Positions 31,112 to 34,660 of a stretch of DNA of 64,000 bases are shown here, piece by piece. The position numbers were made by a program, and so were the translations under genes. The stretch covers positions 164,289 to 228,288 of the forward strand of contig CAXXJK010000009.1 in NCBI GenBank assembly GCA_963665595.2, read 5' to 3'. Within the stretch, counting starts at the first letter, position 1, and every line of letters starts with the position of its first letter. The DNA is from Coriobacteriales bacterium. GTDB taxonomy: Bacteria > Actinomycetota > Coriobacteriia > Coriobacteriales > CADBOM01. The notes under the pieces were generated by a model. The model saw only the letters and a list, made by a program, of their open reading frames with translations. It did not search any database and was not told the origin of the DNA.

Positions 31112-32002
31112 ATGAAGAAAATAATCATAGGCGTTGTTATTGCTATTATTCTGATTTTTGGAATAGCAAAATGCGCATCATCGGGGACATCATCCAATAA
31201 AATCAGTATGCCTAATGTATATGGGCAAAGTTTGACGGACGCTGAGTCGACTCTGAAAAATGCTGGTATCAAATCAACGATTACTGCTAAGACTGGAATT
31301 GGCACGACGGTTGTAGTTGGTAGTAGCGGATACACCGTAACGGCGCAAGACCCAGTCGCCAATACAGAGATAGGTGCTAACGACAAAATAACTCTTACCG
31401 TGCAAAGCGATGCCGAGGTCGCAGCGGCGCAAAAAAAGGCAGATCAAGAAGTTGCAGCTGCGGCAACTAAAGCAGCGACTGCGAGTGACGAGGCCACGGT
31501 CAAATCGTTGGTGGGATCATCTTCCTCCGATGCGCAGAGCAAGCTCTCCGCGTTGGGCTATACGGTCACATATAAACATGCCGTATCTCTCATTGATTAC
31601 ACGGATGAAGTAAAATCTGACGATATTCAGTGGGTTATCACAAAATACGACAGCTTTAACTATAGCAAGAAGACGGTGACGCTATATGTTAATACACAAA
31701 CGAACATTGACGCTCAGACCGCTAAGAGCGCACAGGAAAGTGCTCTTAATAGTAAGCTGAGCAGTTCGGCAGCATGGAGTGAGGCAAAGGATTATGGGAA
31801 GCTGCAATACCCGTATGGATTTGATTTGCATAATATCGTTGGTCTTCTCGCGCAAACAGCCGTAGACGATAACACATGGTTTCTAAAAGCGACCTGTGAT
31901 GTAACAAATTCGTTCGGCGCAAAGCAAAAGGATCTAACATGCGAAGCTAAGGTAACCGGCACTACGAACAACCCTCAAATAATTTCATTCATCGTCTATT
32001 AA
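31112..32002 (+). CDS. Lipoprotein-like secreted protein with PASTA-like domains
   Basis: Signal MKKIIIGVVIAIILIFGIAKC. PASTA-like MPNVYGQSLTDAESTLKNAGI...ITLTV and VKSLVGSSSSDAQSKLSALGYTVTY. Confidence 0.65.
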   Translation: MKKIIIGVVIAIILIFGIAKCASSGTSSNKISMPNVYGQSLTDAESTLKNAGIKSTITAKTGIGTTVVVGSSGYTVTAQDPVANTEIGANDKITLTVQSDAEVAAAQKKADQEVAAAATKAATASDEATVKSLVGSSSSDAQSKLSALGYTVTYKHAVSLIDYTDEVKSDDIQWVITKYDSFNYSKKTVTLYVNTQTNIDAQTAKSAQESALNSKLSSSAAWSEAKDYGKLQYPYGFDLHNIVGLLAQTAVDDNTWFLKATCDVTNSFGAKQKDLTCEAKVTGTTNNPQIISFIVY

Positions 32003-32019
32003 TCCAGAAAGGATAGGGA

Positions 32020-32679
32020 ATGAGCTCGCTGAAAAAGAAATCATCAGTTAAGGGTCTGAACTCCCGTGAGGAATACAAAGAATCTTGGGAGTATTATCGT
32101 CTCTGTAATACCTACGACATTGCGCTTAAACGAGAACCCGAAAATGAATATGACGACAACGCCGTCGGATATACTATTGACGGAAATATTTGCGGGTATA
32201 TCAGCAGGGAATTAGCGGTGAGGATAGCTCCATTGATTGATGCCGGATGGTTGTTTGCTGTTGAACGTATTGACATACAAAACATTGATGATAACCCCGA
32301 TGATTACGATCCGTGCGAAGCTCTTGAGGATAAGTATCATATGCTCGCCGATATGATGTTATACGGTATATCCCCTGACGCTACAGCCGACGAGCGCACA
32401 GATTATGAACGTATTGAACGCCAACGGGCTGAGGATATTACTCGCCGTAAGATTGAAAAAGAGGAATGGCTGAATAAAGAGAGCACGCGTAAAATAGGAA
32501 ATATCGAAGAGCAAATACCGGTGGCTTATCATAGAAACATTGTCAAAACGGTATCGTGGTCTGTTCTGGCGGTATTTTTCTTCATTGTTGCTATCTTATC
32601 GTTGACAATAATGCCAGTATTAGCCCTCATGTTTATTATCGTGATGTTTTGGCCAATATATAAAGCAGTAACAAGTTGA
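32020..32679 (+). CDS. HIRAN-domain protein with a C-terminal two-helix membrane anchor
   Basis: HIRAN-like LKREPENEYDDNAVGYTIDGNICGYISRELAVRIAPLIDAG, a charged coiled-coil linker, and hydrophobic WSVLAVFFFIVAILSLTIMPVLALMFIIVMFW. Confidence 0.65.
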   Translation: MSSLKKKSSVKGLNSREEYKESWEYYRLCNTYDIALKREPENEYDDNAVGYTIDGNICGYISRELAVRIAPLIDAGWLFAVERIDIQNIDDNPDDYDPCEALEDKYHMLADMMLYGISPDATADERTDYERIERQRAEDITRRKIEKEEWLNKESTRKIGNIEEQIPVAYHRNIVKTVSWSVLAVFFFIVAILSLTIMPVLALMFIIVMFWPIYKAVTS

Positions 32680-32844
32680 GTAAAAATAAAAGAACTCCGC
32701 CATCGTTCGAGGTCGCGTAGCATAGCGCCATCAGGAGAGCGGGCATATAAACGGGGAGGGTCTTGAGAAGTTGAGCAACTATAATGACAGTAGAGACGCA
32801 GGCGGTGCCTATTTCCTAGCAAAGTGAGAGGAGATACTTCCTGA

Positions 32845-33218
32845 CAGATGTTAGGTATTGATCAAACCCTTGAACTAGCAACTACTTTATAAGGAATGAG
32901 CAAAGCAATCAGGCCGGGTGATTCAAAATCCCCGGCTTTTTTTGATGATGCAAAGCGTTTTTGTCCTACCCCAAAGATACAATCACCCCAAACTCGAAAG
33001 GAGGTTGCAGAACATAGCTTCACTTGTCTCGACGATAACTGTCAGACTGTGACATATAAGATAACGAGAGACGTAACGACAGCGGCAAATATGCTCAGGA
33101 GATGGGTTGGTCATATATGAAAATTAGAAGCAGTATTACACCATATGAAGGATAGACGTATAAACGAAGAATGAGTATATTAGAAATCGCTGAATAAGTT
33201 AAAGCGAGAGGATAAGCA
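32845..33218 (+). repeat. Leader/promoter module, copy B
   Basis: Colinear with 30747-31111 from its first base to the start codon. Here the hairpin is followed by T7. Confidence 0.8.
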
Positions 33219-34460
33219 ATGGGGGATAAAACGGGGTTCTATATTCAAGAATATGCACGGACTATTTCGGTAAGTAAACTTCCGGAATCCTATGTATCTA
33301 TGGACACGGAAACGACCGGTCTTGATTTCAATAAAGATCACATCATTGAGATATCAGCCTTAAAGGTCGTCGAAGGAAAGCCAATCGACAAGTTCTCATC
33401 CCTCGTCATGTGCGAATTTCCTATTCCCAAGCAGGCAAGCGAAGTAAACGGTATAACAAAGAAAATGCTATCCGGAGCACCTCCTATTCATGAGGTAATG
33501 CATTATTTTGCAGAATTTTCATCAGATATGACGCTGCTAGGCCATAACGTAAATGGATTCGACAGAAGGTTTATCGAACGCGAATGCTTAAAAATTTCGA
33601 ATGTGTCATTTGATAACGAATGGTTCGATACCTTGGAACTTGCACGGAAAATGTATACAGGTCATCTAAAGTTATCTGACTTATGCGAACAATTCGGAAT
33701 TGAAAATCAACAATCGCATAGAGCCCTTTCAGATTGCATCGCAACACACGAATGCTATCAGGCTATGCGCTTGTCTCTTTTGCAAATCACCACTGATGCG
33801 AATGATTTTGCTCCCAATCAATCCTTTGGTGGGGATAAGATGCTCGACGGTTTGTTTTTCGTTTTTACTGGCGAACGTCAGAACCTATCACAGCACGCCG
33901 CAATGCAGATGGCGATAGACCGAGGAGCAAGACTTCAAAATGGCGTAACTTTGAAAACCGATTACCTTGTCAATCTCGGAGGAGAAACGACTGGGAAGGT
34001 TAAAAAGGCTATCGAATATCAAGGTAGAACAGGGATCAAAATAATAGATGCATCTCAGTTCATCGATTTGTGCAATAAATGCGGCGACGGCATCGATACG
34101 GTAAAAGTAAAAGTAGACAAAGAAAAGATTAAGCCAGTTCAAGTAACTCATGAGGAAGCACGGGACGCAAAAATAGAATCACCGACCATGCTGAAACAAA
34201 ACCAAAAAGTGACACCGAAAAATGAGAAAGGTTGTCATTCAAAAGATAACGGAATAGGTAGAAAAATTATAAAGATAGTGGAGATATCCCTAGCAGTAGT
34301 TTTAGGGTTTTTTGCGCTGATTTGTTTCGCCGCAACCACTGTCTCATCGAATACTTCTAGCACCATAACTGGGCTTGTTGTTTTTGGCCTCATATTTGCT
34401 ATAGGGTGTTTGTTACTTCTTGTAAGCGCCTTAGGTAAAAAGCGGAAGAAGAAGCAATGA
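33219..34460 (+). CDS. DnaQ-like DEDDh 3'-5' exonuclease, BRCT domain and C-terminal membrane anchor
   Basis: Exo motifs MDTETTGL, GHNVNGFDRRFI and HRALSDCIATHECY. BRCT-like LDGLFFVFTGE...TLKTDYLV. Two hydrophobic helices and a terminal KKRKKKQ. Confidence 0.75.
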   Translation: MGDKTGFYIQEYARTISVSKLPESYVSMDTETTGLDFNKDHIIEISALKVVEGKPIDKFSSLVMCEFPIPKQASEVNGITKKMLSGAPPIHEVMHYFAEFSSDMTLLGHNVNGFDRRFIERECLKISNVSFDNEWFDTLELARKMYTGHLKLSDLCEQFGIENQQSHRALSDCIATHECYQAMRLSLLQITTDANDFAPNQSFGGDKMLDGLFFVFTGERQNLSQHAAMQMAIDRGARLQNGVTLKTDYLVNLGGETTGKVKKAIEYQGRTGIKIIDASQFIDLCNKCGDGIDTVKVKVDKEKIKPVQVTHEEARDAKIESPTMLKQNQKVTPKNEKGCHSKDNGIGRKIIKIVEISLAVVLGFFALICFAATTVSSNTSSTITGLVVFGLIFAIGCLLLLVSALGKKRKKKQ

Positions 34461-34660
34461 AAATCGGCATGAGGAAACCGTCGATCAAGCGAATGGCGAA
34501 AGCTAGGACGACTGGACGCGTAAAACGAACCGTTAAGCGGTCTTTGATACCGTGGTATGGAAAGAAAGGTATGGGATTTGTTAAGAGCCCAGAACGCGCC
34601 GTGAGGAATGCAGCTTACAAACGCACGGCATTCAGTATCTTCGATTTATTCGAGAAATAG
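34457..34660 (+). CDS. Small, highly basic protein (67 aa), translationally coupled
   Basis: ATGA overlap with the upstream stop. Lys/Arg-rich. Confidence 0.5.
   Translation: MKIGMRKPSIKRMAKARTTGRVKRTVKRSLIPWYGKKGMGFVKSPERAVRNAAYKRTAFSIFDLFEK

Follow-up and report, generated by a model that had tools for sequence, protein, structure and literature searches.

A Coriobacteriales phage satellite carries predicted membrane-tethered DNA-end modules as candidate exclusion cargo

We analysed a 64-kb window (64,000 nt of contig CAXXJK010000009.1) from a Coriobacteriales bacterium, in which a 9.8-kb integrative element that fits a satellite of the phage-inducible chromosomal island (PICI)-like type carries four cargo genes at 31112-34660 on the + strand; their products are named P1 to P4. 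P3 is a DEDDh exonuclease followed by a very likely BRCT domain, P2 has a HIRAN domain, and both proteins end in hydrophobic segments predicted to tether these DNA-end modules to the membrane. Our reading, to which we give a probability of about 0.45, is that the cargo consists of independent membrane-localised barriers that would act on the ends of entering DNA and that the satellite has stacked in two moron-like cassettes. An earlier note on this DNA had described four co-oriented open reading frames (ORFs) in two blocks, and their coordinates, the 17-nt gap in the first block and the ATGA overlap in the second were all confirmed:

31112-32002, + strand: P1, 296 aa, PASTA/YPYG surface protein (Pfam, NCBIfam, AlphaFold2 (AF2), Foldseek and lipobox analysis)
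32020-32679, + strand: P2, 219 aa, HIRAN protein, starting 17 nt after the P1 stop
33219-34460, + strand: P3, 413 aa, with exonuclease (25-188), BRCT (210-286, very likely), linker, predicted two-helix hairpin and KKRKKKQ tail
34457-34660, + strand: P4, 67 aa, ATGA overlap with the P3 stop, 20 K/R vs 3 D/E

The exonuclease domain of P3 matched Pfam RNase_T (5e-32), and its closest solved structure was the PolC exonuclease (2p1j, 3e-23). The motifs MDTETTGL, GHNVNGFD and HRALSD are readable in the translation, and residues D29, E31, D115, H167 and D172 were invariant in 17 P3 homologues. The domain thus carries the ExoI (DxE), ExoII (D) and ExoIII (Hx4D) motifs of DnaQ-like DEDDh enzymes and was modelled by AF2 with a predicted local distance difference test (pLDDT) score > 90. 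The following region remained below the Pfam threshold for BRCT (15.5 vs 21.3 bits); it matched phage ligase-BRCT families of PHROGs (4e-9 and 1.2e-6) and RFC1 BRCT structures (5e-4), PF00533 is precomputed on many P3 homologues, and residues 210-286 were modelled as a β-α-β-α fold, also with pLDDT > 90. These results indicate that residues 210-286 are very likely a BRCT domain of the RFC1/LigA type. The BRCT domain of RFC1 binds 5'-phosphorylated recessed DNA ends.

Behind the BRCT domain, a 57-residue linker (289-345) with pLDDT < 50 in the AF2 model leads to two hydrophobic helices, placed at 353-371 and 386-404 by hydropathy and at 347-375 and 381-412 in the model. Basic residues flank this hairpin on both sides (GRKIIK before, KKRKKKQ after), so that, by the positive-inside rule, both termini of P3 and the enzyme itself would lie in the cytoplasm. 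The exonuclease-BRCT protein with a two-helix anchor and KKRKKKQ tail described earlier was therefore recovered in its domains, motifs and helices, with the BRCT domain below the Pfam cut-off.

P3 belongs to an exonuclease-BRCT (Exo-BRCT) family of 619 proteins. Hydrophobic C-terminal helices were present in 16 of its 21 closest homologues, which argues that the anchor of P3 did not arise by chance; the anchor sequence is not conserved and the linker is hypervariable. A few members from other branches carry an N-terminal transmembrane (TM) segment instead, so that tethering must have evolved more than once. A scan of viral contigs with the alignment of the P3 clade returned mainly soluble Exo-BRCT or bare exonuclease relatives, and a BFVD fold search revealed nothing beyond DnaQ and ligase-BRCT matches. 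In four members of the P3 clade that have no C-terminal hairpin (P0008, P0009, P0010 and P0014), the N-terminus is an MGLFDK… segment, often with a zinc ribbon behind it, which may instead direct these proteins to the membrane (peripherally) or to a partner.

In P2, the HIRAN domain (aa ~30-90) is joined by a charged helical linker to a hydrophobic anchor at the C-terminus (aa ~178-212). The HIRAN domain scored 34 bits in Pfam (2.7e-8; cut-off 24.7) and aligned with HLTF HIRAN structures (3e-4), where NEYDDNAV of P2 faces NPYDKNAI and the YD motifs coincide. The HLTF HIRAN domain binds 3'-OH ends of single-stranded DNA (ssDNA). By hydropathy, the anchor is one ~36-residue stretch interrupted by Pro (Kyte-Doolittle value 2.8), which could form one helix or two, and the nearest P2 homologues have a single C-terminal TM segment. 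The HIRAN domain and the hydrophobic anchor reported earlier were thus found again, while the two-helix form of the anchor is less certain. The DNA-end modules of P2 and P3 are both predicted to be membrane-tethered, with the binding domain of the one and the catalytic domain of the other on the cytoplasmic side.

Close relatives of P2 are rare: one close homologue was detected among 5.8 billion proteins, and an exhaustive HMMER search of 1.8 billion representatives gave six relatives below 1e-10. The gene for the only close homologue (P0122) is flanked by the C-terminal part of an S24-type repressor on one side and by a tyrosine integrase on the other. TM-like segments were found in 20 of 110 HIRAN relatives of P2, and a transmembrane HIRAN protein of pneumococcal prophages has already been named thaL (PMC12637031). 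Since membrane HIRAN proteins recur in this way and the anchored Exo-BRCT proteins form a whole subclade, the idea that such tethering is unusual needs amending.

P4 is basic and translationally coupled to P3, as had been noted. It matched positions 1-66 of four PHROGs families (1e-21 to 3.5e-27), one of which, phrog_4721, matches P4 at its N-terminus and the HIRAN domain of P2 at its C-terminus. By tblastn, P4-like sequences occurred in 70 phage records. The thaL-type pneumophage protein IPP45_00002 contains, in order, the basic module (1-66), KKRKKK, two TM helices and HIRAN; SM1 gp2 has the module, KKRNKR and a TM hairpin; phiCp-A gp25 has the module and a C-terminal TM segment; and phiEf11 gp33 and Lactococcus phage 98203 gp03 are stand-alone 66-aa module proteins. 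The window divides the same parts differently, with the P3 hairpin and its KKRKKKQ tail translationally coupled to the module gene of P4. This connection of P4 with HIRAN/TM proteins, which the earlier note missed, is the sole cross-link among the cargo genes; P4 has none with the exonuclease, and in locus L004 the exonuclease gene is coupled to a small gene that is not homologous to P4. In the phiEf11 lysogeny module (L125, 1255-5037), the gene order is cI, ImmA-like metalloprotease, lipoprotein, 66-aa P4-like protein, lipoprotein and integrase, a mixture of surface lipoproteins and a basic module like that of the cargo arm in the window.

Like P2, the thaL type joins HIRAN and a TM region in one polypeptide encoded by a temperate element, and its N-terminal 66 residues are ~60% identical to P4. 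The two differ in layout, since the thaL type places basic module, TM hairpin and HIRAN in one chain, whereas in P2 HIRAN precedes the anchor and the module is separate (P4), and their HIRAN domains are related at domain level only. The thaL type sits in the prophage lysogeny module and P2 in a satellite cargo arm, although the P2 homologue P0122 also occupies a repressor-to-integrase slot.

P1 matched Pfam PASTA at 3e-14 (53.2 bits vs cut-off 23.2). Its AF2 model (pLDDT 91.8) showed two PASTA domains and a C-terminal α+β domain, the former aligned by Foldseek to the tandem PASTA domains of PknB and PBP2x, the latter corresponding to NCBIfam YPYG_dom (1.2e-25, cystatin/NTF2-like). Hydropathy analysis placed a hydrophobic helix at the N-terminus. 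With the pattern [LVI][ASTVI][GAS]C applied at the signal peptide end, the putative lipobox IAKC is atypical, with K at -1, compared with a canonical xACG in 58 of the 73 members of the P1 family. P1 is therefore predicted to be N-terminally anchored and extracellular, as in the previous description of a lipoprotein-like PASTA protein, while its lipidation is uncertain. The 73 family members come from Lachnospiraceae (Muricomes, Anaerostipes and Eubacterium). Taken with the host genes beside attL (below), this affiliation would point to an anaerobic host of the Clostridia, whereas the assembly is assigned to the Coriobacteriales. P1-type genes are accompanied in some loci by a TM2-domain gene and in others by a DUF4236 gene. 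In L012-L015 (6699-7915), P1 homologues are translationally coupled to the TM2-domain (PF05154) gene, and in one HIRAN relative (P0250) a TM2-like domain forms part of the same protein. These observations hint that small two-helix membrane proteins able to carry HIRAN are partners of the PASTA/YPYG surface proteins.

Genomic context was compared across 20 distinct loci, each holding a homologue of P1, P2, P3 or P4. All seven TM-bearing P3 homologues with context (L003, L004, L010, L011, L128, L129 and L130) were encoded directly downstream of, and co-oriented with, a CI-like repressor gene (HTH_3 with or without Peptidase_S24) and divergently from a cro-like gene; an integrase or serine recombinase gene came next in 5/7. 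The closest P3 homologue (60% identity; L001, 4532-5605, also in L002) has a short degenerate tail with no clear TM hairpin; its neighbours are AbiEi/AbiEii with a SHOCT protein on one side and a SNIPE/T5orf172 gene on the other, which places two different nuclease genes next to each other, one belonging to the membrane-bound SNIPE type. HIRAN and P4-like genes were found in the cI-to-integrase slot of phages of Streptococcus pyogenes, S. pneumoniae, S. mitis, Lactococcus lactis and Enterococcus faecalis, and a streptococcal satellite encodes a HIRAN protein with a C-terminal TM segment. In lysogens, the repressor promoter drives expression of this slot, which houses lambda rexAB, lactococcal sie2009 and TP-J34 ltp. 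Sie2009, Ltp and RexAB, which thus share the slot with the cargo homologues, are co-transcribed with the repressor, are located in the membrane or at the surface and block incoming phage DNA; unlike the cargo, they carry no nuclease or DNA-binding domains. Membership of the cargo proteins in the Ltp or Sie type was considered and rejected, as no profile matched in Pfam or PHROGs.

The context of the relatives points to an exclusion or defence role, and on this ground the proposal of exclusion or defence at the site of DNA entry remains plausible. Its second part, that the four genes form one undescribed system, was not supported: no two cargo-gene families co-occurred at any of the 20 loci, an outcome that the earlier note itself had listed as refuting its proposal, and which argues that the cargo is not one four-gene system. 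The data instead suggest stacked, independent, envelope-associated accessory genes, like those that temperate Firmicutes phages carry in their cI-to-integrase (immunity) region. No paralogues of the cargo genes were found elsewhere in the window.

The cargo arm is built of two cassettes (P1-P2 and P3-P4), each preceded by one copy of a duplicated leader:

30735-31111, + strand: leader copy 1, ~380 nt, up to the P1 start codon, 81% identical to 32833-33218
32833-33218, + strand: leader copy 2, up to the P3 start codon, found by repeat comparison

Each copy contains an 11-bp GC hairpin (30813-30838 and 32912-32936), and in copy 2 the hairpin is followed by T7, resembling an intrinsic terminator at the end of the P1-P2 transcript. 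A conserved box, CGTTTCTGTCCT (also written CGUUUCUGUCCU), was located at 30857-30868 and 32955-32966. With two sequences only as input, RNAalifold paired this box with the ribosome-binding site (RBS) and start codon ~250 nt downstream, including one compensatory C-G to U-A change, which weakly suggests that the leader acts by RBS sequestration. P2 is preceded by a similar RBS context (AGGATAGG..ATG). The leaders matched no Rfam family at E up to 1, their most conserved exact 22-23-mers had no match in public viral, genome or metagenome contigs, and the leader of the closest P3 homologue (L001) was unrelated to them. Because the 74-aa ORF of leader 2 is closed in leader 1, the leader was treated as non-coding; a possible leader peptide of 15-16 codons follows an internal GGAGG, with 6 of 15 residues identical between the copies when read by eye.

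In the mechanism that we propose, the C-terminal hairpin would hold P3 at the inner face of the membrane on a flexible leash of ~57 residues, and its exonuclease and BRCT domains would reach only ends that appear at the membrane, namely the leading end of injected phage DNA or of imported DNA. Resection of the 3' strand by P3 would destroy cohesive or terminal sequences and block circularisation, while the chromosome, having no free ends at the membrane, would be spared. At the same site, the HIRAN domain of P2 would cap or sequester entering 3' ends. P4 probably associates with the anchored proteins or with DNA, its module being fused to such anchors in phage proteins, and P1 may be a separate exclusion factor at the wall. 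Self and non-self would be discriminated by location, as demonstrated for SNIPE. The spatial restriction of P3 is suggested by its conserved active site, its putative end-binding BRCT domain, its long leash and an anchor that is retained although its sequence is free to vary; these observed domains, their arrangement and the genomic context are what the predicted specificity, localisation and phenotype of P3 derive from.

SNIPE, a membrane-bound nuclease of the GIY-YIG class, cuts lambda DNA while it is being injected and becomes toxic once its TM segment is removed (Saxton et al., Nature 2026, PMC13190303). Like SNIPE, P3 is predicted to be a membrane-anchored cytoplasmic nuclease, with location-based discrimination proposed, on mobile elements or in defence islands. 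The architectures differ: SNIPE has an N-terminal single TM segment, DUF4041 and a GIY-YIG endonuclease, P3 a DEDDh exonuclease, BRCT and a C-terminal hairpin on a long leash. SNIPE cuts internally by a demonstrated mechanism, whereas P3 would attack ends. The SNIPE domain DUF4041 (PF13250) had no Pfam match in P1-P4, and the nuclease of P3 is DEDDh rather than GIY-YIG (T5orf172). P3 would thus work like SNIPE while standing outside the SNIPE family.

Among catalogued candidates, the PADLOC single-gene candidate PDC-S48 (PDLC05027/05028) matched P3 in its exonuclease (profile 4-162) and BRCT (322-407) parts. The match did not extend over the whole 411-position profile, as P3 does not have the central ~160 positions and adds the linker and TM hairpin. 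The soluble Exo-BRCT proteins (phrog_192; 'DnaQ' of Campylobacter CJIE4) share the same two-domain core at 30-37% identity to P3 and, unlike P3, end at the BRCT domain with no anchor. The earlier remark that this gene combination is not recognisable as a named defence system needs qualifying: Exo-BRCT is a PADLOC candidate and thaL has a name, and both are uncharacterised. In the literature searched, we found no mention of PDC-S48, which was predicted by association, and no functional study of DEDDh-BRCT proteins against phages, of TM-exonucleases in superinfection exclusion or of HIRAN-TM proteins in defence. For DEDDh exonucleases that act alone against phages, another clade, directed at RNA, has recently set a precedent (PMC13344964). 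In actinobacterial islands, DEDD nucleases have been noted in association with HIRAN genes (PMC11706625). What is new here is an uncharacterised anchored clade of a catalogued Exo-BRCT candidate family, found on a satellite together with a thaL-like protein.

Several observations weigh against the entry-barrier reading. The TM calls come only from hydropathy and AF2 helices; most of the wider Exo-BRCT family is soluble, stopping at the BRCT domain; and PHROGs labels this family "DNA polymerase exonuclease subunit". The lysogeny-module context is also compatible with lysogeny maintenance, induction or a role against transformation. Both thaL and PDC-S48 are at present names only, and the functions proposed for P1-P4 are predictions. 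The frameshifted helicase gene of the element, described below, means that the element may be decaying and its cargo perhaps not expressed. Finally, the end-attack model depends on the end structures of the phages of this host.

Among the alternatives, the one that fares best, although we regard it as improbable, is that P2 and P3 act against transformation, intercepting transforming ssDNA and so shielding the prophage or satellite from deletion by homologous recombination. Transforming ssDNA enters Gram-positive cells 3' end first, with an uptake polarity of 3'-to-5'. The predicted specificities of both P2 and P3 are directed at 3' ends, which would suit such a role. The genes also reside in lysogeny modules, including those of pneumococcal prophages, and a conflict between prophages and transformation has been documented in the study that named thaL, although thaL was only named and not assayed there (PMC12637031). 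This explanation presupposes a naturally competent host, and it sits poorly with the closest P3 homologue, which is found among the anti-phage genes AbiE and SNIPE.

We see little chance that P1-P4 form one multi-component system, with a PASTA sensor outside, HIRAN and Exo-BRCT effectors inside, a basic adaptor and all parts needed. The co-orientation and tight spacing of the genes (17-nt gap, ATGA overlap) are as such a system would have them, the leader common to both blocks implies co-regulation, and the fusion of P4-like, TM and HIRAN parts in thaL-type proteins means that P2 and P4 may cooperate. Set against this are the zero co-occurrence in the 20 loci, the P3-type genes standing alone behind cI, the varying partners of P1-type genes (TM2 protein or DUF4236 protein) and the terminator-like hairpin that separates the two blocks.

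Comparably slim is the prospect of an abortive-infection latch, in which the tether keeps a toxic exonuclease off the nucleoid until infection frees it by membrane damage or linker proteolysis and the cell dies. The linker, with its 57 disordered and hypervariable residues, could plausibly be recognised by a protease or sensor, and SNIPE without its TM segment is toxic through its nuclease (PMC13190303). A DnaQ-type 3'-5' exonuclease, however, needs free 3' ends and would be a poor killer of an intact circular chromosome, and no protease or sensor partner was conserved beside the gene in the seven TM-bearing P3 loci. It is just as hard to credit that the exonuclease and HIRAN proteins merely serve replication, repair or induction of the phage or satellite, with the membrane only localising replication, since the labels that favour this ("DNA polymerase III epsilon/exonuclease subunit" in PHROGs, NCBIfam and GenBank) are domain-level transfers and, despite the PolC exonuclease domain being the nearest solved structure, the gene is kept apart from the replication module: it belongs to the lysogenic repressor operon in 7/7 loci and, in the satellite, is found on the arm opposite rep and helicase.

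Of the explanations considered, independent barriers at the entry site remain our preferred reading. A bolder version of it is tentative and, in our judgement, doubtful: the anchored Exo-BRCT proteins and the thaL-like HIRAN-TM/basic-module proteins could be a Gram-positive counterpart of SNIPE, a surveillance of DNA ends at the entry site in which tethering confines a 3'-5' exonuclease and a 3'-OH binder to whichever end of the incoming DNA arrives first. Many temperate Firmicutes phages would encode such proteins in their immunity operons, and the satellite would have stacked them here behind a shared, possibly RBS-sequestering leader; they could act on phage DNA and on transforming ssDNA alike, linking superinfection exclusion to protection from chromosomal curing.

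SNIPE (2026) first established membrane location as a criterion that replaces sequence or modification in self/non-self discrimination by an immune nuclease. If the entry-barrier reading is true, P3 would stand for a second such nuclease family, unrelated to SNIPE and with an anchor of separate evolutionary origin; the location principle would then be general, covering Gram-positive bacteria and also the degradation of DNA ends by exonucleases. The reading would also provide a testable function for thaL-type proteins and for the 66-aa module, which is widespread in streptococcal, lactococcal, enterococcal and clostridial phages. For gut Lachnospiraceae, the family of the P1 relatives, phage defences have received little study, and the satellite cargo provides candidate exclusion genes.

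The element itself is delimited by 102-nt direct attachment (att) repeats, 98% identical, at tRNA-Ala. Its remaining features in the window are as follows:

30231-30332: attL, 102-nt direct repeat, a copy of the tRNA-Ala 3' region, 98% identical to 40000-40101
30419-30464, + strand: 46-nt repeat with ACGATTACGGAATAATTACGGAA, just inside attL (repeat family D4, 85% identical to 39944-39989)
30504-30746, + strand: 80-aa acidic ORF from the ORF list, first gene inside attL, no Pfam or NCBIfam match
34886-35338, - strand: TerS, small terminase subunit (Pfam Terminase_4 1.3e-6; phrog_83 1.5e-21)
35447-36419, - strand: DnaB-like helicase in two overlapping ORFs (profile searches)
36595-37344, - strand: block of a replication-initiator-like winged helix-turn-helix protein (36595-36906), a 58-aa ORF and an Xis-like HTH_17 protein (37069-37344)
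37644-38561, + strand: 305-aa ORF upstream of the integrase, no Pfam or NCBIfam match
38647-39960, + strand: tyrosine integrase (phrog_1 2.6e-64; Pfam Phage_integrase)
40000-40101: attR, overlapping the 3' part of tRNA-Ala(GGC) (40057-40132, - strand), from repeat and tRNA searches

PICI-like elements were defined as att-flanked and 7-20 kb long, encoding an integrase, regulators, a replication module and TerS but no capsid, tail or lysis proteins (PMC13376191, PMC11364771). The gene content of the element (integrase, Xis-like protein, initiator, helicase and TerS) agrees with this definition, and Pfam and PHROGs searches detected no capsid, tail or lysis genes within it, so that it fits a PICI-like phage satellite. 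The replication, integration and TerS genes all lie outside 31112-34660 in this att-bounded element, which bears out the description of that stretch in the earlier note as accessory cargo of a PICI-type satellite; PICIs are reported to carry immune systems (PMC11364771). A sibling search via the integrase returned ~36%-identical Coriobacteriia elements that have Int and Xis in common with this one but not the cargo.

The helicase gene is broken by a one-base frameshift in a T8 run (35901-35908), which is either an assembly error or the mark of a replication-defective or phase-variable satellite. Weak relatives of the 305-aa ORF occupy the same position beside related integrases in Oribacterium and Eggerthellaceae loci (L042 and L038), and this ORF could be a satellite regulator. 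The second copy of the 46-nt repeat (39944-39989) is found on the inner side of attR, where the integrase gene has its 3' end; both copies contain a tandem ATTACGGAA motif and are plausible arm-type integrase sites. A weak tmRNA/tRNA-like Rfam match at 30288-30356 corresponds to the tRNA fragment of attL. Beside attL, the host genes at 28709-30194 encode a CdhD-like corrinoid/acetyl-CoA-synthase-related membrane protein and a 2x[4Fe-4S] ferredoxin.

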